Shown: positions 42,449 through 54,462, counted from the stretch's first letter. The stretch is 64,000 nucleotides of DNA from an uncultured delta proteobacterium (GCA_963727625.1 CAVSHR010000008.1:192001-256000); one strand, 5' to 3'. The notes: generated by a model not told the origin, from the sequence alone. A program made the numbers and translations.

Positions 42449-42543
42449 AGCGCGGCCTGATCCTTACCGGCGACCTCTTGCAGAGCCTTCGGCTGTTGTC
42501 AGGTCCATTGAGCAAATAATCAAAGCCCGACACTGAGCTTTCT

Positions 42544-42700
42544 CTCGGATGATGCAGGTGACGAGGGCGGCATTTCAAGCCGTGGCGAACCTGAATGAAC
42601 AGGCCACTGACTCTAAGAGCCACACCCGCGTCTAAATTTCTTTGCAGAATTCTTTCTAAATCCCGCTACCTGCTAAATTCCTATGGTAGACCCTATTCCC
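42544..42700. repeat. About 155-bp non-coding element, copy 1
   Basis: Closely similar to 44771-44926; ends ...AAATTCCTATGGTAGACCCTATTCCC. Confidence 0.9.
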
Positions 42701-42734
42701 TCTCGATCAGATGGTAGAAGGCACCGTCAAACTC
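42701..42734 (-). pseudogene. Micro-remnant of the Y1 transposase gene
   Basis: ATGGTAGAAGGCACCGTCAAACTC (42711-42734) is identical to 50252-50275; TCTCGATCAG also occurs in the transposase. Confidence 0.75.
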
Positions 42735-43045
42735 CGAACTGCTTCTATGTTATTTTTCATTAAAAACTTTACCAATTTGGTTCAAATTGATTTTTCGAAT
42801 GATCGCATGCTTGCGAATCTTCGATAACCACTCCTTGTAAGCTGGGTCGATCCGTCGTTCAACAATACAGGTAAGGACCACTTGGGTATTCTTTACTTTC
42901 CCAATCGTTTGGATCGTGAAGATATAACATATATGAGATTACGCGACTTTTGTCCTTCAATCAATACGTAAGTTCCTGGATAATCCAGATTGAAATCTGC
43001 GACGACAATATCAACCATGTCCGTATAAGATGGACTCCCTGAAGC

Positions 43046-43563
43046 TTAACGCTGTCTTTCAATAACCATTAAACTGTTTTGAAAACCGTCTCAATTATTT
43101 TTTCCTTCGTCGGAAGTCGAGCGGTGCTAGAAGTGACGATCCGGGCAGGTCGAAGTGCAATGTCAAAACGTTCGGCCATGACTTACGGTGTTTGGTGGAA
43201 ATTTACCCAAAAATCTGGCGGTTGTATGTTCAAGCGGTCGTTAGGCGCTGTTACGAATTGTGACAAAAGCCGTCAGAATTCTCAAGTAAGCCTTTATAGT
43301 AATATGAAAGCGGTTCTCCTTGAAAGTTTCGGAGGTGTTTACGAAGCGCAACAAAGTCCGGCCATTATAGAACTTAACATGGATAGGCAATGACTTTCCC
43401 AACTGATATTAGGACGTTTATGCCAGAAAACATCGCGGCAAATATCACGCACAATAGCATTTTTCACGGAGCCCAAGAGGACATTGATAGGTTCAGCCGC
43501 GAGAACAGAGCGAAGTAAACAAAATGCAGCAAAAAGCAGAACCATGTAAAATTGCCGATTCAC
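43046..43563 (-). pseudogene. Degraded exported (immunity-like) gene with signal peptide
   Basis: Starts MNRQFYMVLLFAAFCLLRSVLAAE just after the SleB-like tip; multiple frameshifts downstream; 3' end approximate. Confidence 0.5.
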
Positions 43564-43576
43564 GTTTCCCTCGCGT

Positions 43577-43718
43577 TAACGTAATTGCCGATAAAAATAA
43601 GCGTTGCCAATCCGCTCCGTAAACTCAAGTTTCCCTTGATTAATAAGAGGTCTAAAACTTTCCGGTATTCTCTTTCCATGATGGTACATTATCGCTCCTC
43701 CGGTCGGATCAGGTGACT
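43577..43718 (-). pseudogene. Orphan toxin tip, SleB/Hydrolase_2 cell-wall hydrolase-like C-terminus
   Basis: Manual translation QSPDPTGGAIMYHHG...TERIGNAYFYRQLR* matches the DPTxGAxxY...IGxHxFY pattern of SleB-family enzymes. Confidence 0.6.
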
Positions 43719-43728
43719 GGAATCTGGT

Positions 43729-43746
43729 GTCAGGCCTGAGTATTGA
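43729..43746. repeat. Element inverted repeat, 3' end of transposase copy 1
   Basis: GTCAGGCCTGAGTATTGA within ATCTGGTGTCAGGCCTGAGTATTGACTATTT. Confidence 0.9.
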
Positions 43747-44679
43747 CTATTTAGCCAACATTCGTGCGAGTTTCTTCTCGGTCGGCTCGTCCCGATGCGT
43801 CTCGTACCAAGCATAGAGACGGCTGATCATGGACGGATCGCGATTAAGCCGCCGCCCTAGTTCCTTCGTCGTCAGTCCACACTGTTGCCGTGCCAGGTAC
43901 ACCAGCTGCGCTCTCATGGCCACCCATCGACGCTGCCGCCCGACGTGCAGCAATACCTCGCTTTTCACATCATGGGCTTGTGCAATCGTTTCGAGCAGCC
44001 GGGCAAAGCTCACTTTATTTCCCCTTATCTCAACTTCTCGGGCTTCGCTACGCTCGGCCACCTTGCTTAAAAATCGCTCTTCACCCAAAAAGCGCTGGTC
44101 GATGGTTTCATAGTACTTCTCGTCGTGCCCCTGTTTGAACCCGTCTTCGATAAACCCCTGGTATCCCCGCCGGGCGGCTCCCAGGGTCGAGCCAAACTGG
44201 CCAAGCGTTGCTTCGGTGTCGACTTTGACGGCAGCCGGTTTGCCCAGATACGCCCCGTGGCTGCTCCAGCGATAGCGCCACGGATTCTCGGGGACTTTCA
44301 ATCGAGCCGGATTGAGATGGATATAGCGCACCAGTTCAAGCAGGTAGGCGTCGCGGTCGCAGAGGATCGCCTTGTAGCGGCCTTGAAACAGGTGGCCGAC
44401 CTTGCCGTGGCGGCGGTTGAATATCTGGGTATAGCTTCCTTGAATCCCTTGCATGATCTTGGATAGTCCAACGCGCTTGGTCTCGATCAGGATGTGGACG
44501 TGGTTGGCCATCAAGACATAAGCATGGAGCCGAAAGCCGTAGCGCTGGCGATAGTGCTCGATGCGTTGGAGGTAGCTCTGGCGGTCGTGCTCGTCGTGGA
44601 AGGTCTTCTGGCGCTGGTTGCCGCGCACGATGACATGGTACAAGGCACCGTCAAACTCGACTCGGGGCTTTCGTGCCAT
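43747..44679 (-). CDS. RAYT/IS200-like Y1 HUH transposase with C-terminal HTH, copy 1
   Basis: YHVIVRGN, MANHVHIL (HUH), GHLFQGRY, RYIHLNP catalytic Tyr, YRWSS, C-terminal TTKELGRRLNRD HTH. Confidence 0.92.
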   Translation of the reverse strand: MARKPRVEFDGALYHVIVRGNQRQKTFHDEHDRQSYLQRIEHYRQRYGFRLHAYVLMANHVHILIETKRVGLSKIMQGIQGSYTQIFNRRHGKVGHLFQGRYKAILCDRDAYLLELVRYIHLNPARLKVPENPWRYRWSSHGAYLGKPAAVKVDTEATLGQFGSTLGAARRGYQGFIEDGFKQGHDEKYYETIDQRFLGEERFLSKVAERSEAREVEIRGNKVSFARLLETIAQAHDVKSEVLLHVGRQRRWVAMRAQLVYLARQQCGLTTKELGRRLNRDPSMISRLYAWYETHRDEPTEKKLARMLAK

Positions 44680-44687
44680 GCCGGCAC

Positions 44688-44715
44688 AGTATCAGTGGAG
44701 AAGACTGAATGTCAA
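44688..44715 (-). promoter_or_regulatory. Transposase promoter (also present in the other copies with a 5' end)
   Basis: Minus strand TTGACA-16 bp-GATACT ending 8 nt before the ATG; no SD sequence. Confidence 0.6.
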
Positions 44716-44720
44716 ATAAA

Positions 44721-44738
44721 TCAATACTCAGGCCTGAC
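44721..44738. repeat. Element inverted repeat, 5' end of transposase copy 1
   Basis: TCAATACTCAGGCCTGAC is the exact reverse complement of 43729-43746. Confidence 0.9.
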
Positions 44739-44770
44739 CCTATTTCCTATTTCTCTGCTGCGGTCGACCC

Positions 44771-44926
44771 CTCAGATGATGCAGGTGACGAGGGCGGCAT
44801 TTCAAGCCGTTGCGAACCTGAATGAACAGGCCACTGACCCCAAGAGCCACACCCTCGTCAAAATCTCTTTACAGGATTCTTTTAAATCCTGCTACCTGCT
44901 AAATTCCTATGGTAGACCCCAATTCC
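44771..44926. repeat. About 155-bp non-coding element, copy 2
   Basis: Similar to 42544-42700; contains a CAGGATT/AATCCTG hairpin; ends GGTAGACCCCAATTCC. Confidence 0.9.
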
Positions 44927-44943
44927 TGACGCGTATTTGCTGG

Positions 44944-45363
44944 TTACGCCTGTCTGTCACGATCAACCCTCGCGCACATACCGTAGGCGATCATTGCGAC
45001 TATGGTGGAAAACAAATATATCCATAGAAACAAGGCAGCTCCTTGAGCAAACAGCAGAAGACTGGCCGGAATTACTGGCGTGACGGCCAGAGCAGCAAGA
45101 CGTGGATACCTTTCAACAAAACCGTAAGGCAAGAGGAGCGAGGCAAGACTATAAACAAGCGAGGCCAACACCATTGCGACCACTAGTAAAAGGTACGTGT
45201 ACGCCGCGCTATCCAAGAAATCTATAAGATTAGTGCTTCCGGGCTCACCTCGGAGCCTGAGTTCAAACTCCAGCGCAACCAAAAACACTGGCAAAAACAT
45301 CGCCGCCGCTATGAAGGCGTTCCAAAGAAACATCGATATGAGTTTCCGCCAATTCATCATCAC
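44944..45363 (-). CDS. Putative immunity protein (about 4 TM helices)
   Basis: Hydrophobic 139-aa ORF with a GTGA overlap on the stop of the upstream toxin tip. Confidence 0.65.
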   Translation of the reverse strand: MMMNWRKLISMFLWNAFIAAAMFLPVFLVALEFELRLRGEPGSTNLIDFLDSAAYTYLLLVVAMVLASLVYSLASLLLPYGFVERYPRLAALAVTPVIPASLLLFAQGAALFLWIYLFSTIVAMIAYGMCARVDRDRQA

Positions 45364-45830
45364 GGCGATCCAACCGTTACACTACCGCAAATTCCTGTTA
45401 GGCATATGGCACGCGATTCCCGGCTCCGAAACAAGAACTGAGTTGATCCGCCTACGGTCCGCGTAAGCTCAAACGAAGGGAACGGGTCTATGACGCCTCG
45501 GGCGAGAATGCCCCCCGAATTTGCCGTAATAGAGAGATTAAAGTCTATTGCCGGTCCAATGCCGAACAGATCAAAAGAGTTTCGAACCGCACCGCTCAAA
45601 CCCACCGTGTTTCCCCTTACCCCAACGTTTACTATATTACCTTGGCCAATTGTCAAAGCAGACCTGCAGACTTGAACTGCTGCGGCACATGTAGGGTTGA
45701 CCTGAAAACTACCGGTTCCCGTCTCAAAATCGAGGTTGAAAAACGCGCGGGACCGAGTGGGATTTGGAGCAGGATCAAAATCGCGTGCATCTCCCCGAAG
45801 ACCAAGGGCGGCTCGGGATCCAATGGTGGG
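45360..45830 (-). pseudogene. Orphan toxin tip (DUF3238-like), 5'-truncated at the element end
   Basis: Open frame from the element junction: LRGDARDF...SRAF...PAIDF...DPFPSFE; no native start. Confidence 0.5.
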
Positions 45831-45838
45831 GATCTGGT

Positions 45839-45856
45839 GTCAGGCCTGAGTATTGA
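45839..45856. repeat. Element inverted repeat, 3' end of copy 2
   Basis: Identical GTCAGGCCTGAGTATTGA. Confidence 0.9.
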
Positions 45857-46789
45857 CTATTTGGCCAACATTCGTGCGAGTTTCTTCTCGGTCGGCTCGT
45901 CCCGATGCGTCTCGTACCAAGCATAGAGACGGCTGATCATGGACGCATCGCGATTAAGCCGCCGCCCTAGTTCCTTCGTCGTCAGTCCACACTGTTGCCG
46001 TGCCAGGTACACCAGCTGCGCTCTCATGGCCACCCATCGACGCTGCCGCCCGACGTGCAGCAATACCTCGCTTTTCACATCATGGGCTTGTGCAATCGTT
46101 TCGAGCAGCCGGGCAAAGCTCACTTTATTTCCCCTTATCTCAACTTCTCGGGCTTCGCTACGCTCGGCCACCTTGCTTAAAAATCGCTCTTCACCCAAAA
46201 AGCGCTGGTCGATGGTTTCATAGTACTTCTCGTCGTGCCCCTGTTTGAAACCGTCTTCGATAAACCCCTGGTATCTCCGCCGGGCGGCTCCCAGGGTCGA
46301 GCCAAACTGGCCAAGCGTTGCTTCGGTGTCGACTTTGACGGCAGCCGGTTTGCCCAGATACGCCCCGTGGCTGCTCCAGCGATAGCGCCACGGATTCTCG
46401 GGGACTTTCAATCGAGCCGGATTGAGATGGATATAGCGCACCAGTTCAAGCAGGTAGGCGTCGCGGTCGCAGAGGATCGCCTTGTAGCGGCCTTGAAACA
46501 GGTGGCCGACCTTGCCGTGGCGGCGGTTGAATATCTGGGTATAGCTTCCTTGGATGCCCTGCATGATCTTGGACAGTCCAACACGCTTGGTCTCGATCAG
46601 GATGTGGACGTGGTTGGCCATCAAGACATAAGCATGGAGCCGAAAGCCGTAGCGCTGGCGATAGTGCTCGATGCGTTGGAGGTAGCTCTGGCGGTCGTGA
46701 TCGTCGTGGAAGGTCTTCTGGCGCTGGTTGCCGCGCACGATGACGTGGTACAAGGCACCGTCAAACTCGACTCGGGGCTTTCGCGCCAT
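45857..46789 (-). CDS. RAYT/IS200-like Y1 HUH transposase, copy 2
   Basis: Near-identical to copy 1, with a few substitutions. Confidence 0.92.
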   Translation of the reverse strand: MARKPRVEFDGALYHVIVRGNQRQKTFHDDHDRQSYLQRIEHYRQRYGFRLHAYVLMANHVHILIETKRVGLSKIMQGIQGSYTQIFNRRHGKVGHLFQGRYKAILCDRDAYLLELVRYIHLNPARLKVPENPWRYRWSSHGAYLGKPAAVKVDTEATLGQFGSTLGAARRRYQGFIEDGFKQGHDEKYYETIDQRFLGEERFLSKVAERSEAREVEIRGNKVSFARLLETIAQAHDVKSEVLLHVGRQRRWVAMRAQLVYLARQQCGLTTKELGRRLNRDASMISRLYAWYETHRDEPTEKKLARMLAK

Positions 46790-46831
46790 GCCGGGCACAG
46801 TATCAGTGGAGAAGACTGAATGTCAAATAAA

Positions 46832-46845
46832 TCAATACTCAGGCC
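46832..46845. repeat. Element inverted repeat, 5' end of copy 2 (truncated after AGGCC)
   Basis: TCAATACTCAGGCC. Confidence 0.85.
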
Positions 46846-46865
46846 CTAACGCATGACCGAAAAGC

Positions 46866-47283
46866 TTAGCTGTCGATCCTTAGATACACTAACTTATTAT
46901 CTACGAAAACTATTTTATCCTGGCGATTTTTAACCTCTTTTGTCAAAATGCACGCCCGGGATTGTCCATCAACGTCAACATCTTGAGGTGGAATACCGGA
47001 TTGTTCAAAAGTGCCAGGTTCAAAGCCAGGAGGACATGTAGTCGTGAAATTATTTCTGATATTTGTCGGCAACGAAAAAATGGTCAAGGTGGCTCCCTGG
47101 CCAAAAAAAGCATCGTGCTGGTCTCGCTGCCATGTCACACGCAGGCCGTCGGGCAGAGGAAACCCTATAATCCCTTCAACAATACGAACTGGCGACAAAA
47201 GCCATGAATAGACCTCGCGCCATGAACCCACGCACGGAACAATTACCGAGAAAGGAAATTGTGATCAACCAAGACTTGCGCAT
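46866..47283 (-). CDS. Putative immunity protein with N-terminal anchor (frameshift near 47250)
   Basis: ATG at 47283 (MRKSWLITISF) lies 6 nt after the toxin stop; the body continues in the 46866-47231 frame. Confidence 0.5.
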
Positions 47284-47289
47284 GTTTTT

Positions 47290-48865
47290 TCACCTCGGTT
47301 TCACATACTGCCCATAGGTTATGTCGAATGGGGCACAATTGCCTCCAATCGCACATGTTGCTTGGATAATTAAACTAATACCGTTACGGTGAGTAAGCAA
47401 CTTGCTCTGTTGTATGTTAAAGTTGTAATTATCGTAAAATCCAATTGCTTGACCGTTTGTATTGTAAAAAACACTTGCGGTACCGAAAAGCAAAGTCGAA
47501 ATTTGAATTCGGACCAAAATCGAACTGCTTTCGTATAAGAATCTGACCGCTCAACTTAATTACGTAATACTAAGTGGACTTCGATTCGACACCCAGTCCG
47601 TTACTTCGTTGAACTGAGATGGGGACAATCGTACGCCGTTGTTCTGTCCTAACCAGTATTTTTCAAAAAGCGATTTTTCGAATTCTGTGTTTAATCTAGA
47701 ATGATTTCGTATTACATTCCCTATGAGCCCCAAGTCCGGATGTGAAGATCGTCCTCCGCGTCCGCCAGGATAGTCGTTTCCTGCTGAAGCCAGAAGGACG
47801 GGACTAAAGAACCCTCCTCCGCCTGCATTGCTAACCCAGGAATCTGCGGATCGCCGGTATCAGGAACAAATCCTCCCTGATTTGTTCAACCCAACTGAAA
47901 ACTGGTTGCGATATCCCGAATCAATCCCGCTGTCCCCAAGACGTGCTGAACCCCACACCGGCCTCCGCTAAAGTCGAAAATCCTCCTGGCGGCAAACCAG
48001 TCGCGATCGAGACAAAATCAAGTATGACGCTAAAGATCTTTCCGAAGATACTATTAAAAAACCCGCCCTTTTTCTTATGCCTGTGGAAATACCCGCTGGG
48101 ATCGGTGTAATTTTGCGGGCTGTTTAAGACGTAGCTGTAGCGGTTGAGGTTCTGGGGATCGAAGGGCGTTTGGACAAATGGATCGGCGGAGATGAATCTC
48201 CCAATCTCGGCGTCGTAATACCGGCCACCGTAATAGTAGAGTCCGGTCTCCGGATCCAGCTCTTTGCCCGTGAACCGATGGGTTGGATCGATGGTGCCTT
48301 CTGAACGCGAAATCGTTCCCCAAGGATCGTATTCGACGAGCTGGACTCTCGTCCCGTTGATGTCGGTGACGACATTGACGCTGCCCAGATGATCGTTGTG
48401 GTAGAAGTATTTGTTGGCCCCCCGCTTTGAGGCAACGTTTTCATCGCCGATGCGGATGTATTTGATCACCACTCCGTTCGGATCGATCTCGTAGCCCGAA
48501 AAGGGGTAAATCGTAATACCGGTCGGAGCGTTCTTCTTCACCCGCACACCGCCATAGTCGTACTCCATCGAAGTGCTGCCGCCGCCGGAGATGGCAATAC
48601 TGCTGACCCGGTTGTCGATGTCCCAGGTGAGGGTCTGGTTGCCCCTCGTCAGCATGTTGCCGTTGGCGTCGTAGGTGTAGCTCTTGCTCGAGACCCGCGT
48701 GATTGGTGACCGCCGAGGGGTGCATCGAATCGCCGTAGCTTAAGGTCGATCCGCACTTGTCGGTGAGATTGCCGATGGAGTTGTAGGTATAGGAACAGTT
48801 CTGCTGGGACTGACCGGCGCCGAAGGTCCCTGCGCCGGTGATCATGCGGTTCAGATCGTCGTAGG
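47290..48865 (-). pseudogene. Orphan Rhs core fragment plus C-terminal toxin tip (frameshifted)
   Basis: YDDLNRM, HNDHLGS, FTGKELDPETGLYYYGGRYYD, SPQNYTDPSG; tip ends ...FYDNYNFN...HR...PFDITYGQYVKPR*. Confidence 0.85.
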
Positions 48866-48876
48866 CAGAATCTGGT

Positions 48877-48894
48877 GTCAGGCCTGAGTATTGA
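48877..48894. repeat. Element inverted repeat, 3' end of copy 3
   Basis: Identical GTCAGGCCTGAGTATTGA. Confidence 0.9.
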
Positions 48895-49827
48895 CTATTT
48901 AGCCAACAATCGTGCGAGTCTCTTTTCGGTCGGCTCGTCCCGATGCGTCTCGTACCAAGCATAGAGACGGCTGATCATGGACGCATCGCGATGAAGCCGC
49001 CGCCCTAGTTCCTTCGTCGTCAGTCCACACTGTTGCCGTGCCAGGTACACCAGCTGCGCTCTCATGGCCACCCATCGACGCTGCCGCCCGACGCGCAGCA
49101 ATACCTCGCTTTTCATATCATGGGCTTGTGAAATCGTTTCGAGCAGCCGGGCAAAGCTCACTTTATTTCCCCTTATCTCAACTTCTCGGGCTTCGCTACG
49201 CTCGGCCACCTTGCTTAAAAATCGTTCTTCACCCAAAAAGCGCTGGTCGATGGTTTCATAGTACTTCTCGTCGTGCCCCTGTTTGAACCCGTCTTCGATA
49301 AACCTCTGGTATCCCCGCCGGGCGGCTCCCAGGGTCGAGCCAAACTGGCCAAGCATTGCTTCGGTGTCGACTTTGACGGCACTCGGTTTGCCCAGATACG
49401 CCCCGTGGCTGCTCCAGCGATAGCGCCACGGATTCTCGGGGACTTTCAATCGAGCCGGATTGAGATGGATATAGCGCACCAGTTCAAGCAGGTAGGCGTC
49501 GCGGTCACAGAGGATCGCCCGGTAGCGGCCTTGAAACAGGTGGCCGACCTTGCCGTGGCGGCGGTTGAATATCTGGGTGTAGCTTCCTTGGATGCCCTGC
49601 ATGATCTTGGACAGTCCAACACGCTTGGTCTCGATCAGGATGTGGACGTGGTTGGCCATCAAGACATAAGCATGGAGCCGAAAGCCGTGGCGCTGGCGAT
49701 AGTATTCGATCCGTTGGAGGTAGCTCTGGCGGTCGTGATCGTCGTGGAAGGTCTTCTGGCGCTGGTTGCCGCGCACGATAACGTGGTAGAAGGCGCCGTC
49801 AAACTCGACTCGGGGCTTTCGCGCCAT
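48895..49827 (-). CDS. RAYT/IS200-like Y1 HUH transposase, copy 3
   Basis: Same motifs; more substitutions relative to copies 1 and 2. Confidence 0.92.
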   Translation of the reverse strand: MARKPRVEFDGAFYHVIVRGNQRQKTFHDDHDRQSYLQRIEYYRQRHGFRLHAYVLMANHVHILIETKRVGLSKIMQGIQGSYTQIFNRRHGKVGHLFQGRYRAILCDRDAYLLELVRYIHLNPARLKVPENPWRYRWSSHGAYLGKPSAVKVDTEAMLGQFGSTLGAARRGYQRFIEDGFKQGHDEKYYETIDQRFLGEERFLSKVAERSEAREVEIRGNKVSFARLLETISQAHDMKSEVLLRVGRQRRWVAMRAQLVYLARQQCGLTTKELGRRLHRDASMISRLYAWYETHRDEPTEKRLARLLAK

Positions 49828-49869
49828 GCAGCCACAGTATCAGTGGGGAAGACTGCAACGTCAAATAAA

Positions 49870-49887
49870 TCAATACTCAGGCCTGAC
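49870..49887. repeat. Element inverted repeat, 5' end of copy 3
   Basis: TCAATACTCAGGCCTGAC followed by tandem CCCTATTCCCTCT x2. Confidence 0.9.
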
Positions 49888-49915
49888 CCTATTCCCTCTC
49901 CCTATTCCCTCTCCC

Positions 49916-50295
49916 CAATCGAGCCGGATTGAGATGGATGTAGCGCACCAGTTCGAGCAGGTAGGCGTCGCGGTCGCAGAGGATCGCCTTGTAGCGTCCT
50001 TGAAATAGGTGGCCGACCTTGCGGTGGCGGCGGTTGAATATCTGGGTGTAGCTTCCTTGGATCCCCTGCATGATCTTGGATAGCCCAACGCTCTTGGTCT
50101 CGATCAGGATGTGGACGTGGTTGGCCATCAAGACGTAAGCGTAGAGCCGAAAGCCGTAGCGCTGGCGATAGTGCTCGATGCGTTGGAAATAGCTCTGGCG
50201 GTCGTGATCGTCGTGAAAGGTCTTCTGGCGCTGGTTACCGCGCACTATGACATGGTAGAAGGCACCGTCAAACTCGACTCGGGCTTTCGTGCCAT
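49916..50295 (-). pseudogene. Transposase copy 4, 5' fragment (frameshifted, truncated after RYIHLNPARL)
   Basis: Homologous to the first approximately 380 bp of the other copies; one G is missing near 50281. Confidence 0.9.
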
Positions 50296-50336
50296 GCCGC
50301 CACCGTATCAGTGGAGAAGACTCAATGTCAAATAAA

Positions 50337-50350
50337 TCAATACTCAGGCC
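50337..50350. repeat. Element inverted repeat, 5' end of copy 4 (truncated after AGGCC)
   Basis: TCAATACTCAGGCC followed by CCAATTCCTGACGC. Confidence 0.85.
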
Positions 50351-50371
50351 CCAATTCCTGACGCTTGGACC

Positions 50372-50878
50372 CTATTCTTCTCTACTCTGGATTTCCTCCT
50401 CGTAAAATGCCACCTCAAATCCACATTCAAGATTTAGTTCGGCGAGAAGACTCATTTGCTCGGGCCAAAGGGTTGGCCCACCATCCCCCGCAGCGGACCA
50501 CCACACACAAGTAACTGCCATGACTACATCTTCGGCTTCCTGAATCGCGCGTAGCTTATCTTTCACAGGAAAAAGCCGCGCGAGCAACCAATCGAGATGC
50601 CTTCTAACATCTTTCGATTGAACGTGACCTTCTGAGGAAAGAAACCATCCTCCGATTTTGGCCTCTCTCCCGACACCACGAGAGTTTTTTTTGATTTCGC
50701 CTTTCGACTGGCTATTGGTTGCTTCGATCCCGAGGAGGGTTGTAATTGAGCCCGGATCGAGCCTATGTCCGTAGATTCGTAGTTTAGCCAACGTTCTTTC
50801 GCATGTTTCATAGGCATCATTGATCGGGGTTAGCCGTGAAGCTTCTATTCGCATAAAATCCTCATCGAACGAATTCAC
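50372..50878 (-). CDS. Putative immunity protein, DUF4279-like
   Basis: LDPGSITTLLGIEAT..KG...W.LSS...HL.WLL..L pattern; overlaps the toxin stop. Confidence 0.7.
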   Translation of the reverse strand: MNSFDEDFMRIEASRLTPINDAYETCERTLAKLRIYGHRLDPGSITTLLGIEATNSQSKGEIKKNSRGVGREAKIGGWFLSSEGHVQSKDVRRHLDWLLARLFPVKDKLRAIQEAEDVVMAVTCVWWSAAGDGGPTLWPEQMSLLAELNLECGFEVAFYEEEIQSREE

Positions 50879-53028
50879 TAATATTCCCTATAATATTTCC
50901 AGCCTTGTCGAGGTAATTACCAATAGCATCTATTTTGCCATGAAAATCTGAGCCTTTTCCATAGAAATCCTTTAGCTCCTCAACGGCACGCCCCCATTCT
51001 CGCGGAGTGCGGTCAATGTCAAAAAACTTGTTAAGAGCTTTCGCGGTACTCGACCGAATTGTGTTGCCTCCGCTTTGCAGGATACGTACACGAGCGGCAC
51101 CCACGGTACCTTCTGCAAAGCTACCGCTAAGCCGGGGAAGTATGACCTTCGGAGCCTGCTGTAGTGCTTTTAAAATTCCGACGCGCGCAATGCCCACCAG
51201 ACCTGTGAGGATATCGATTGGGTCGATGAGCGGCTGATCCAATCCCGGTTCATCCATCCACGGTGGGCGCGAACGGATTCCGAAATCTGATCTAGCGTCA
51301 CTCACTACGGTTCCCCCTGTGACGTCGGCTTGCGCTACCTGTATCCCCGGCGCGAATCCGCTTGCGAAGACCCCTGCGTGACTCGCCGCCACTGCGGAAG
51401 CCAGAAGAGCTGGAGATTCAAGCCCTGGCGGAGCCAACCCTCCCAACAGGCCCGCAGTAAATCCCCCAGATGAGCCCGCCGAGAAACGGATTCCCGCCAT
51501 TCAGCGCGGCATTGACCGCACCACCAACTGCGCCGCCTACCGCTCCTGCAACCAGCGCCGGATAACCAGCGCCGTAGGTTACCACTGTGATGATGGCACC
51601 GATGAAAAACCCAAAGAAACTCCTGAAAAACCCGCCCTTCTTTTTCTTATGCCTGATGAAAATACCCACTCGGGTCGGTGTAGTTCTGCGGGCTGTTGAG
51701 GACGTAGCTGTAGCGGTTGAGATTCTGGGGATCGAAGAGCGTTCATGAACAAACGGATCGGCGGAGATGAATCTCCCGACCTCGGCGTCGTAATACCGGC
51801 CACCGTAATAGTAGAGGCCGGTCTCCGGATCTAGCTCTTTGCCGGTAAACCGATGGGTGGGATCGACGGTGCCTTCCGAGCGCGAGATGGTGCCCCACGG
51901 GTCGTATTCGACGAGCTGGACCCTCGTCCCGTTGATGTCGGTGACGACATTGACACTGCCCAGATGATCGTTGTGATAGAAGTATTTGTTGGTCCCCCGT
52001 TTTGCGGCAACGTTTTCATCGCCGATGCGGATGTATTTGATCACCACTCCGTTGGGATCGATCTCGTAGCCCGAAAAGGGATAGATGAAGGTACCGGCCG
52101 GAGCGTTCTTCTTCACCCGCACACCGCCATAGTCGTACTCCATCGAAGTGCTGCCGCCGCCGGAGATGGCAATACTGCTGACCCGGTTGTCGATGTCCCA
52201 GGTGAGGGTCTGGTTGCCCCTCGTCAGCATGTTGCCGTTGGCGTCGTACGTGTAGTTCTTGCTCAGGCCCGCATGATTGGTGACCGCGGAGGGGTGCATC
52301 GAATCGCCGTAGCTTAAGGTCGATCCGCACTTGTCGGTGAGATTGCCGATGGCGTTGTAGGTATAGGAACAGTTCTGCTGGGACTGACCGGCGCCGAAGG
52401 TCCCTGCGCCGGTGATCATGCGGTTCAGATCGTCGTAGGTAAACGTCCGGCTCGCGGTAAAGAGACTGTCGGTGATGGACGTGACGTTGCCGTTGTTGTC
52501 GTAGCCGTAGGATAAATTCTGCTGGTTGCCTGAGGTGGCCTTGTTGGTCACCCGGAAGTTGTTAACGTTATACGTCCAGGTGGTGGTGAGATTATTGGCG
52601 TAGGTAAGCTGGGTTTTCTGGCCGCGGGCATTGTAGGTGATGCCGTTGATGTAGCCGGGCGCGGTGTTTAACCAGCCGGCTTCGTTGTACGTATACGTGA
52701 CCGTTTCACTGTCGGGGAATGTCTCGCTGGTGATGCGGTTGAGGGCGTCGTAGCTTTGCGCCATGGTTTGCCACACGCCCAAGAGCAGGCGCTGGGTCTG
52801 GGTCGTCCTGCCCAACTGATCGTAGGCAAATTTGGTCGTGGTCGCCTGATCGACGATTTGTGTCACCCGGCCCTTCGAATAGGGCACCGCGGCATCGTCA
52901 TAGGTCCAGGTAATGAGCGTCGTCGCGCAGGTCGATCCCTGCTTTTTGGTAGTGGGGCGGCCTAAGGAATCGTAATCGAAACAGAGCGTCTGGCCATTGG
53001 CGTCTTTCTGGGTGACGAGATCGCCGGC
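50862..53028 (-). pseudogene. Rhs/YD-repeat protein, N-terminally truncated, with C-terminal toxin tip (frameshifts near 51742, 51657, 51480)
   Basis: YD repeats from AGDLVTQKDANG..., Rhs core FTGKELDPETGLYYYGGRYYD, Gly-rich hydrophobic linker, variable tip. Confidence 0.88.
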
Positions 53029-53036
53029 AATCTGGT

Positions 53037-53054
53037 GTCAGGCCTGAGTATTGA
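53037..53054. repeat. Element inverted repeat, 3' end of copy 5
   Basis: Identical GTCAGGCCTGAGTATTGA. Confidence 0.9.
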
Positions 53055-53245
53055 CTATTTGGCTAACAATCGTACGAGTCTCTTCTCGGTCGGCTCGTCC
53101 TGATGCGTGTCGTTCCATGCCTAGAGACGGCTGATCATGGATGCATCGCGATGCATCCGCCGCCCTAGTTCCTTCGTCGTTAGTCGATACCGTTGCCGTG
53201 CCAGGTGCACCAGCTGCGCTCTCACGGCCACCCAACGACGCTGTC
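53055..53245 (-). pseudogene. Transposase copy 5, diverged 3' fragment with internal stop
   Basis: QRRWVAVRAQLVHLARQ...MISRL*AW...RLLAK*. Confidence 0.88.
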
Positions 53246-53339
53246 CGATTAGTGGTTGAAGAGAGCGTGGCACAATTTCGCCATGATGGTACATAACTGC
53301 TCCCTCCGTTGGGTCCGGAATGGCTCCGAAGTCATTTAT
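53246..53339 (-). pseudogene. Second SleB-like toxin-tip fragment
   Basis: INDFGAIPDPTEGAVMYHHGEIVPRSLQPLI, homologous to 43577-43718; shares CCATGATGGTACAT. Confidence 0.6.
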
Positions 53340-53966
53340 TCATCGTGTGACTTTGTTTTTTCCAACAATCCGTTGCAATTCTTCCCGCCTGACATCGCCT
53401 TCACGAATGATCCGAACCCGATCTCCGCAGATTTCCGCGACGGTGGAACCGGTCCGCGAAGTCAATTCACCGCCGGCAACGAAAATTTCGATCTTTCCTG
53501 AAAAATAATTTCTTGCTTGTTCCACGGTCCGCGCGGCGGGTTGTCCGGAGGGATTGGCACTGGTCGCGGTTATTGGCCGGCCGAGTGTTTTGACCAACTC
53601 GGCCGCGATCGGTTGGCTGGAAATGCGCACGCCGATGTTACCGGCGGAATTGAGCAACGGCTTCGGCAAATCGTCGCGCGCGGGTAAAACCAATGTCAGG
53701 GGACCGGGCCAGAACTCGGCGATCAATCGTTCGGCAAGCGGAGAAACTTCTGTCACCAAAGTGTCGAGCATGGCGCGGTCGGCGACAAGCACGGGAATCG
53801 GATTGGCGATATCGCGGCCTTTGAGTTGAAAAACTTTTTCCACCGCCGTGTTGTCGAGCGCATCCGCGCCCAAGCCGTAGAGCGTTTCGGTTGGAAACGC
53901 GATGACCTCGCCGCTTTTGAGCGCGGCTAGAGCGGCGGCAAAAACCTCAGCTTTTGTTTCGCTCAC
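53340..53966 (-). CDS. tsaC: L-threonylcarbamoyladenylate synthase (TsaC/Sua5)
   Basis: AFPTETLYGLG, KGR, FWPGPLTLV, TSANPSG. Confidence 0.93.
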   Translation of the reverse strand: MSETKAEVFAAALAALKSGEVIAFPTETLYGLGADALDNTAVEKVFQLKGRDIANPIPVLVADRAMLDTLVTEVSPLAERLIAEFWPGPLTLVLPARDDLPKPLLNSAGNIGVRISSQPIAAELVKTLGRPITATSANPSGQPAARTVEQARNYFSGKIEIFVAGGELTSRTGSTVAEICGDRVRIIREGDVRREELQRIVGKNKVTR

Positions 53967-54462
53967 TTTGAAGCTTGCGGTCCCGCTCTTCGACACCCGC
54001 CGCCATCTCCTTCTTGGACTGGATCAATTTGGCTGCGACCGCTTTGTCGGTGCGCGCGACGATCTGCGCAGCGAAGATGCCGGCATTGGCGGCGCCGGCC
54101 TTGCCGATCGCCATGGTCGCCACCGGGATGCCCGCGGGCATCTGCACGGTGGCCAGCAGAGCATCCAAGCCTTTGAGACTCGATGAATCGATCGGAATGC
54201 CGATCACGGGCAGGGTGGTGTTGGCGGCGATGGCGCCGGCCAAGTGAGCTGCCGCGCCGGCGCCGCAGATGATCGCGTGCAAACCTCGTTGCTCGGCGCT
54301 AGCGGCATATTGCGCCGCCCGCTCCGGAGTGCGGTGCGCCGACATAATGTGGGTTTCGTAAGCGATACCGAATGATTCGAGGCGTTTTTCCGCCTCACGC
54401 ATGACTTCGAGATCCGAGTCGCTGCCCATGAGAATGCCGACCTTCGGATGTGTGTTTGCCAC
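53947..54462 (-). CDS. purE: N5-CAIR mutase
   Basis: MGSDSD, SAHRTP, GAAAHLAG, VQMPAGIPVAT. Confidence 0.97.
   Translation of the reverse strand: MANTHPKVGILMGSDSDLEVMREAEKRLESFGIAYETHIMSAHRTPERAAQYAASAEQRGLHAIICGAGAAAHLAGAIAANTTLPVIGIPIDSSSLKGLDALLATVQMPAGIPVATMAIGKAGAANAGIFAAQIVARTDKAVAAKLIQSKKEMAAGVEERDRKLQSERNKS

Follow-up and report, generated by a model that had tools for sequence, protein, structure and literature searches.

How do the severed C-terminal ends of Rhs toxins come to be strung together with copies of a transposase gene, all facing the same way? The question is raised by a stretch of 64,000 nt from an uncultured delta proteobacterium (GCA_963727625.1, CAVSHR010000008.1:192001-256000), here called the window; it corresponds to G000:C8:192001-256000, where G000 refers to the source genome and C8 to the contig, and feature coordinates are window positions throughout. 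Between 42.46 and 53.34 kb, the window carries an island of about 10.9 kb, where beheaded Rhs C-terminal toxin/immunity modules are stored in alternation with copies of a small transposable element, a TIRtron, whose gene encodes a TIRYT transposase. The link between TIRYT genes and Rhs is specific and exceeds chance, both in this genome and in its order. All the island genes are on the minus strand, every module is beheaded, and the island contains no full-length Rhs gene. It lies between the native gene tsaC (Sua5/YciO/YrdC; 53340-53996, minus strand; PF01300, E 4e-55) at its upstream edge and the genes of the left flank. Each flank is matched in 27 of the 30 other genomes compared within the genus; whenever a contig contains both matches, the distance between tsaC and the genes left of 42460 is 0-100 nt, and the alignment with the closest genome (G006) shows an empty site, for which a first-pass annotation of the window, made from the sequence alone, had proposed to search related strains. 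The island is carried by this genome alone among those searched.

That annotation had singled out four copies of a 31-mer, at 43722, 45832, 48870 and 53030, as transposase 3′ ends. Exactly four exact copies do occur, where none is expected (100 shuffles), and all are the transposase-3′ ends (right ends, RE) of one element family, in a single orientation throughout. Repeat finding, whole-genome BLAST and end alignments bound the element at ~1.02 kb. On the gene strand, it consists of a left end (LE), (G)GGGTCAGGCCTGAGTATTGATTTATTTGACA..., followed by a 310-aa open reading frame (ORF) and the RE, ...AAATAGTCAATACTCAGGCCTGACACCAGAT; the ends are terminal inverted repeats (TIRs) of 27 nt, with imperfect inverted arms extending over 25-38 nt (copies A, B and C of the window and a copy on contig C4). 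The LE tip is GGGGTCAG in the C4 copy and in those of two related genomes (G014, G011), and (A/T)GGGTCAG in copies A and C; the RE tip, GGTGTCAG, is one base away from GGGGWSAS. The window holds three full copies, one half copy and two remnants, all on the minus strand. TIRtron A (43722-44740; transposase at 43747-44679), TIRtron B (45832-46845; 98.6% identity to A; transposase at 45857-46798) and TIRtron C (48870-49889; 96% identity; transposase at 48895-49827) are full length. TIRtron C′ (49916-50364) is a 5′ half, comprising the LE, with a variant tip, and the 5′ 435 nt (transposase aa 1 to ~127), while remnant D (53030-53243; 90-92% to the other copies) retains the 3′ 214 nt including the RE, and a 31-nt scrap of the transposase N-terminus (42704-42734) lies inside a piece at 42544-42734. 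The unit of transposase, toxin tip and immunity gene, described at first as repeated four times, is uniform in orientation and complete only three times. A further full copy (96%) is located at G000:C4:223279-224300.

The transposase belongs to Pfam family Y1_Tnp (PF01797; E 9e-18). Matches of its C-terminal part to helix-turn-helix (HTH) domains are weak (Bac_DnaA_C, E 1e-5 and 25.8 bits with a cut-off of 31.5; HTH_23, 20 bits), and a paralogue (L062) reaches 50 bits to the DnaA C-terminus. The NCBIfam model REP_Tyr_transpos (NF047646) gives 74.2 bits, just under its equivalog threshold (cut-off 80), versus 26 bits for the IS200 model (NF033573; cut-off 55), in agreement with the RAYT-like Y1 enzyme that had been read from the sequence. 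The HUH motif (NHVH) and the Tyr motif RYIHLNP are kept in nine of ten aligned paralogues, the tenth being N-terminally aberrant. The best transposase match outside is in a Nitrospira metagenome-assembled genome (57%). Y1_Tnp has 32 matches in G000 and 0-15 in each of 30 genomes of the same genus, indicating an expansion of the family in G000.

In the portions of the two key papers covered here, a TIRYT is defined as a RAYT-like Y1 protein with a DnaA-C/HTH extension whose gene is bounded by TIRs sharing GGGGWSAS, the entire element being a TIRtron (Di Nocera et al. 2013, PMC3733652; Quentin et al. 2018, PMC6006769); TIRYTs are subclass 2.1 of TnpA_REP in Quentin et al. (PMC6006769), and GGGGWSAS stands at the TIR tip in the majority of the described members (PMC3733652, PMC6006769). 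Judged by its sequence, the island element is a new member of this described family, for which activity has yet to be reported. The likeness comprises a Y1 HUH core nearer to RAYT than to IS200, TIRs in place of hairpins of repetitive extragenic palindromic (REP) sequences, the GGGGWSAS tip, and solo or paired TIR copies elsewhere in the genome; it may extend to the C-terminal region, which is weakly similar to Bac_DnaA_C/HTH. It differs in that the copies are multiple, nested and 96-99% identical, and in its specific link with Rhs toxin/immunity genes, a context that does not appear in the covered portions of PMC3733652 and PMC6006769. The first-pass remark that no described system of this kind was known does not, therefore, hold as far as the element family is concerned. 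We found no paper linking RAYT, TIRYT or IS200 with Rhs arrays, in a literature coverage that excludes the supplements in which TIRYTs are listed, possibly with their contexts.

Four other types of mobile system were considered and rejected. Classical IS200/IS605 elements encode a small TnpA (~130-150 aa) and have subterminal hairpins without TIRs; the island element has a 310-aa protein and TIRs, and the IS200 model remains well below its cut-off. In a RAYT/REPIN system, the gene is present once, between REPs of which many copies are scattered as REPINs, while this genome has four full copies of the element, ~30 Y1 loci and ~25 TIR-like sites with one doublet. The cassettes resemble those of an integron, to which the locus had at first been likened, in being co-oriented and stacked, silent ones included, but they share no recombination site except the element ends: there is no IntI among nine ORFs scanned in 43.7-54.0 kb, attI, attC and a common promoter are absent, and repeat finding yielded no families but the element, the Rhs core and IS110 pieces. 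The enzymes of ISCR/IS91 are Y2 rolling-circle Rep-like proteins working with oriIS/terIS ends. What the island element has in common with them is an HUH enzyme and the idea that one exact and one missed end could mobilise adjacent DNA; its 310-aa protein, whose sole matches are Y1_Tnp and RAYT, is nonetheless of the Y1 type and has TIRs, and an ISCR-like action, as proposed earlier, would be purely hypothetical. An insertion sequence, H-rpt (ISAs1 family), is a regular component of E. coli Rhs elements; its DDE transposase is of another family, and we know of no claim of exact junctions between H-rpt and beheaded cores.

Solo TIRs occur elsewhere in the genome, and a gene-less doublet of both TIRtron ends, ~95 nt long and MITE- (miniature transposable element with inverted repeats) or REPIN-like, occurs in two of the genus's genomes (G000:C5:844823-844917 and G004:C4:13111-13201). 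Tandem duplications of 10-20 nt in 2-5 copies are found beside or overlapping the TIR tips in several TIRtron subfamilies (window 49884-49915; G000:C5:1077284-1077345; G000:C7:164840-164870 and 165872-165900; L022:1480-1500 and 2510-2560), for example, GGAGAGGGAATAG twice and GGCAATTGGGG four times. These duplications may be a footprint of end processing.

In all, we identified five Rhs loci in G000 (RHS_repeat and tblastn): one on C2, a fragment on C4, two on C5 and the one in the window. A Y1+HTH gene is located within ~3 kb of all five. On C5, an rhs gene (1772 aa) is followed by a small gene, a TIRYT gene, 28 nt, a beheaded Rhs (538 aa, with a tip like tip B of the window), a small gene and another TIRYT gene; the C5 TIRYT is only 35% identical to the window transposase, and the order on C2 is the same as on C5.

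For the relatives, we used Rhs core ends (TIGR03696, 123 genomes of the order) and RHS_repeat matches in the genus, mapped 65 Rhs loci by tblastn, and counted Y1+HTH genes within 5 kb of Rhs sequence. Core-end matches in three unpublished genomes (G005, G082, G093) had been dropped before this count, as had nine with a contig end or short flank (G100:C199, G100:C193, G110:C71, G110:C200, G098:C760, G076:C179, G089:C219, G111:C173, G097:C100) and L150, which is not an Rhs locus. A Y1+HTH gene is present at 20 of the 54 informative loci and absent from 34 with at least 3 kb of downstream sequence; 11 loci are uninformative. Its orientation is that of rhs at 17 of the 20 loci, opposite at two and mixed at one. 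The gene is situated 0.9-1.9 kb past the core end, just behind the tip and the small gene, and at three loci (L166, L174, L182) a beheaded Rhs comes 36-90 nt after it. In the order, Rhs loci have TIRtrons of several subfamilies as specific residents, placed just after the immunity gene and co-oriented with rhs. Given 104 Y1 matches in about 165 Mb of the genus, fewer than one Rhs-adjacent locus would be expected.

As a control for any insertion sequence, we scanned with Pfam, in two batches, 206 ORFs of at least 140 aa located in or up to 5 kb downstream of the 65 loci. Y1_Tnp is the commonest family in both batches (8 + 7 = 15 members; Bac_DnaA_C, 5 + 4), and among the 25 top families listed per batch, no other transposase family has two or more members; there is one IS21-type pair. 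At least 12 label changes are required to account for Rhs adjacency in a FastTree phylogeny with 122 members of the family, and some TIRYT clades are wholly Rhs-adjacent, with members from different genera. The enrichment of Rhs neighbours that the first-pass annotation had proposed to look for is thus found in the genome and the order; across phyla, an Rhs ORF lies within 10 kb at 4 of 80 family loci. The closest copies of the element (71-74% identity; flanks examined in G014:C29 and G011:C513) are located among housekeeping genes, with no toxin DNA. The window cassettes were not found in other genomes: of 44932-48100, only the element part was matched (122 genomes, two candidates per genome scored).

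The junctions show what the two ends of the element have to do with the modules. At C (48865) and at D (53028), the neighbour of the RE is a 5′-truncated Rhs core, and at B (45830), it is a tip without core. Comparison with uninterrupted paralogues shows that, 1-6 nt beyond the RE terminus (...CCAGAT), Rhs sequence begins at a different point in each case. The RE joints are exact at all five junctions, while the Rhs breakpoints vary (reference ~1056, ~1252 and one within the tip); the element sits at toxin-module boundaries, as had been suggested, and the exact joints imply that the transposase, or at least the element terminus, made them. A single preferred site in the Rhs core was considered and rejected, the breakpoints being at ~1056, 1205, 1245-1252, 1277 and 1305. 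Orphan start points (reference 1205-1370) are alike with and without an adjacent TIRtron. All four 3′ ends had been said to abut decapitated toxin ORFs; this is so at B, C and D, while the RE of TIRtron A is next to a 37-codon ORF with its own ribosome-binding site (RBS) and ATG.

The LE sides are less independent. The sequence GAGAGGGAATAG, or a near variant (12-13 nt), precedes the LE at A, C and the scrap, and two of these three flanks follow truncated transposase genes, that is, they lie inside the genes of other copies. The flanks of LE and RE rejoin in none of five copies, a pattern expected from exchange between copies. In another genome (G104:C14), a TIRtron has Rhs core on either side, with ~570 codons lost. 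The upstream junctions are indeed close to immunity stop codons, as had been noted (14-21 nt; 8-25 bp in the first-pass annotation), except that the one at 44944 is with an IS110-type left end and not with the Y1 element. The neighbourhood of immunity gene and LE is conserved and looks inherited. At the C4 copy, which lies outside the Rhs arrays, ~180 nt of Rhs core end stand 15 nt from the LE. No contiguous empty site was found when the flanks of the G011 and G014 copies were compared with G000, or those of a G000:C7 paralogue with the genus.

Two side observations concern the same copies. In the window (C′-C, 48870-50364) and in L150 (G014:C29:1300-2491), a full copy has, immediately upstream of it, a partial 5′ copy that faces the same way; in both pairs, the 3′ part of the interrupted copy is missing. 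The C4 copy is located between two 79%-identical copies of a 674-nt host segment (G000:C4:222417-223090 and 224305-224974); the genus relatives are split into two allele types, each matching one of the segments, which hints at a foreign origin of one segment copy.

C-terminal displacement is held to be the origin of Rhs orphan arrays (Jackson et al. 2009, PMC2935791, to which PMC5361080 refers for Rhs; both covered in part). The island modules have the make-up of Rhs orphan modules (a core-end domain, a variable tip and a small downstream gene, putatively for immunity), and the array resembles orphan arrays as a string of 5′-truncated cores with core-end motif, variable tip and immunity gene, lower GC in tips and immunity genes included. 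It differs from them in that there is no full-length rhs at its head, and in that the beheading points coincide with the exact terminus of a transposable element instead of a homology breakpoint. We favour the reading, to which we would give an even chance, that TIRtrons bound Rhs cassettes and provide both the downstream junction and a homology arm in C-terminal displacement. A module would have the form [Rhs core - tip - immunity - TIRtron]; ordinary insertion or one-ended joining would link the TIRtron end, exactly at its RE, to a point in a resident Rhs core. Crossovers, to the left in the Rhs core and to the right in the TIRtron, would then put a new tip and immunity gene upstream, and the old module would be left downstream, beheaded, behind the RE. 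The scheme would amount to Rhs C-terminal displacement in which the TIRtron is the downstream junction and a portable homology arm. The order of these events, and any catalysis by the transposase beyond making its own ends, are what we infer from the anatomy.

Several points tell against this scheme. None of its steps has been observed, and a simple insertion with rejoining flanks was found for no copy, so that ordinary transposition of the element itself is unproven. As the island now stands, without a full-length Rhs gene, displacement in place is impossible. Three Rhs orphan arrays (L162, L163, L167) have no TIRtron, which makes the element unneeded for stacking. The Rhs-adjacent proteins of the tree were collected from Rhs loci (an ascertainment bias), and kinship between the genomes makes their loci non-independent. 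One-ended mobilisation would explain the C4 copy and the GAGAGGGAATAG flank at three junctions at least as well. Lastly, the array is read from assembled contigs.

The most direct competitor is the capture of toxin/immunity DNA by the transposase, as the first-pass annotation had suggested. Through one-ended transposition, read-through or a composite of two co-oriented copies, the TIRYT would mobilise the DNA adjacent to one of its ends, and next to a resident RE it would stack units of the form [Rhs fragment - tip - immunity - TIRtron]; the LE side would be that of the captured DNA, and the TIRYT would be the cassette recombinase. The RE, exact at five of five junctions with flanks that never rejoin, the stretch of Rhs core end at the C4 copy in a non-Rhs locus, the 12-13 nt that recur before the LE at three junctions (two of which lie within transposase genes of other copies), the 5′ partial copies upstream of full copies here and in G014:C29, and the family-specific enrichment in the Pfam control all speak in its favour. 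To our knowledge, Y1 enzymes of the IS200/IS605 type do not transduce their flanks, which counts against it. Neither junction circles, looked for as had been proposed, in short, low-depth metagenome contigs, nor cassette-plus-element units shared between genomes were found; the closest copies, in G014 and G011, are without toxin DNA, orphan starts are the same with and without an adjacent TIRtron, and the covered portions of PMC3733652 and PMC6006769 contain no TIRYT biochemistry. Active capture is, in our estimate, possible though unlikely. A kindred and rather doubtful proposal combines it with homology: TIRYT elements would be dedicated vehicles of Rhs cassettes, the Y1 HUH enzyme making the exact RE joint, the Rhs core acting as the homologous arm, and [tip - immunity - TIRtron] units being moved between loci or genomes and stacked. 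The paucity of Rhs genes near family members across phyla (only 4 of 80 loci) and the three arrays that exist without the element argue against a dedicated cassette system.

The idea that orphan arrays are dispensable DNA gathering any insertion sequence, the boundary positions reflecting selection against hits in immunity genes, gains something from the IS110-type fragments and a 475-aa transposase-like ORF (G000:C5) in or beside Rhs loci, from the fact that all island modules are already dead, and from the expansion of Y1 genes in G000; it is improbable, however, since the Pfam control, with 15 Y1_Tnp members and at most one for other transposase families among the 25 families listed, contradicts passive accumulation of any insertion sequence, and the 20 of 54 loci with fewer than one expected, the co-orientation at 17 of 20 and the constant position past the core end also tell against it. 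A TIRYT domesticated to serve the Rhs locus (e.g., for expression control or site-specific rearrangement of tips) instead of a selfish element would account for a position and orientation conserved in several genera, and for clades that bring together different genera and are Rhs-adjacent throughout; in the part of PMC6006769 covered, RAYT relatives are considered domesticated. We consider this quite improbable in view of copies that are several in number, 96-99% identical, in part truncated, and nested, as would be found with an insertion sequence that is or recently was active, of the 34 informative Rhs loci without a TIRYT, and of the solo TIRs and the doublet elsewhere in the genome. An array with three 1-kb repeats and two Rhs core repeats might also be thought a mis-join or collapse of repeats; yet there are differences of 1-4% between the copies, whose flanks are distinct, the grammar is repeated on two further G000 contigs and in independent assemblies of other genera, and short metagenome contigs match unique cassette stretches at 99-100% (public reads from four runs, ~7% of sampled words; contigs short, low-depth, from soil and wetland), all of which makes an assembly artefact highly improbable.

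The downstream joining of new tips to Rhs and other polymorphic toxins has so far been put down to illegitimate recombination without a known agent, and for the TIRYTs, a widespread HUH family, neither an activity nor a role is known. The repeated, oriented link between TIRYT and Rhs, with element termini at the beheading points, offers a testable handle on both problems and suggests a transposable element as the source of the missing downstream junction or homology arm in toxin diversification; genomes in which TIRtron activity is possibly recent enough for study are identified as well. If the link were one of passive co-travel only, Rhs loci would still be marked as entry gates for foreign DNA. 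If TIRYT elements were dedicated vehicles, they would constitute an HUH-driven, homology-assisted cassette system, the first biological role for the family.

The individual modules are described here from tsaC downwards; the toxin and immunity roles of their tips and small genes are predicted from position. The GC content of tips and small genes is 0.44-0.50, compared to 0.56-0.60 around. Module D begins with a 5′-truncated Rhs core fragment (51418-53028; RHS_repeat, E 5e-25; 78-81% to the full-length Rhs genes on C2 and C5). By-eye comparison with fragment C shows its reading frame disturbed across the core-end motif; at 51600-51700, the stretch with this motif (...DPxG...) is in another frame than in fragment C, by which the processing motif would be lost. 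The putative toxin-tip ORF of 212 aa (50862-51500), so named for its position after the core, has no Pfam or NCBIfam match, and the Atlas search gave just a weak, sub-threshold MafB-like lead (0.84); it is followed by an immunity-type gene, DUF4279 (50372-50878; PF14106, E 4e-20). Module C has a 5′-truncated core fragment that starts with ...YDDLNRM and contains the core end and a short tip (47921-48865; TIGR03696, E 3.5e-24; 93% to fragment D), tip pieces that run on to about 47290, and an intact ORF of 121 aa (46866-47231), a putative immunity gene by its position, without a Pfam or NCBIfam family. Metagenome contigs show 1-nt indels in the module C tip at 47485, 47565 and 47832, for which a real frameshift and an assembly error are both possible.

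Two tips had been thought to carry no Rhs-core homology. Tip B (45360-45830), an open frame, is indeed core-less, but its 89% paralogue at G000:C5:1074208-1075101 continues upstream into an Rhs core, so that tip B represents a more deeply truncated Rhs module; it has no Pfam or NCBIfam family, and the Atlas search gave nothing. The ORF behind it (139 aa; 44944-45363) is a putative immunity gene, whose paralogue follows the same tip on C5, and has no Pfam or NCBIfam family. The other supposed tip, at 43577-43718, is none: it corresponds to the small ORF of 37 aa behind TIRtron A (MYHHGKRIPESF..., 43577-43689), with its own RBS and ATG. Further downstream, a low-GC stretch (0.43-0.44; 42735-43576) holds short or degenerate ORFs. 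An Rfam search of 42-54 kb gave no match at E up to 0.1.

At the upstream island edge (53244-53339, minus strand), an RBS and ORF start (MYHHGEIV..., ATG at 53294) are fused in frame to an internal transposase fragment. This RBS with ORF start (MYHHG...) occurs twice, at 43676-43713 and 53281-53318, with 76% identity and no further copy in the genome; the first heads the 37-codon ORF behind TIRtron A, and the second is fused to remnant D beside tsaC. The downstream edge (42450-42537, minus strand), defined by the alignment with G006, comprises a diverged version of the last ~19 codons of tsaC (42450-42505) and, next to it, a variant of a TIR-like sequence (42500-42537). These tsaC codons are thus present twice, with the working end at 53340-53396 and the diverged remnant on the opposite side of the island, which would be expected if the island had come with a tsaC end of its own or after the decay of a long target duplication.

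Pieces of another insertion sequence are found in the window, where nothing but its non-coding left end survives. The left non-coding end of an IS110-family element (44761-44930, minus strand, 170 nt) is 98% identical to G000:C5:957775-957944 and joined after the GGGGTC of a TIR-like sequence, and a second IS110-type left-end fragment occupies 42544-42701 (minus strand). The full element is located at G000:C5:956368-957944, with a 437-aa transposase ORF directly downstream of the matching left end; the family name comes from our reading of this ORF rather than from a family search. At all three sites, the IS110-type element is joined directly after ...GGGGTC or ...AGGGTC, the tip motif of TIRtron-type repeats, and the joints at C5 and at 44930 lie within TIR-like sequence; the element, therefore, appears to target TIRtron-type repeats.

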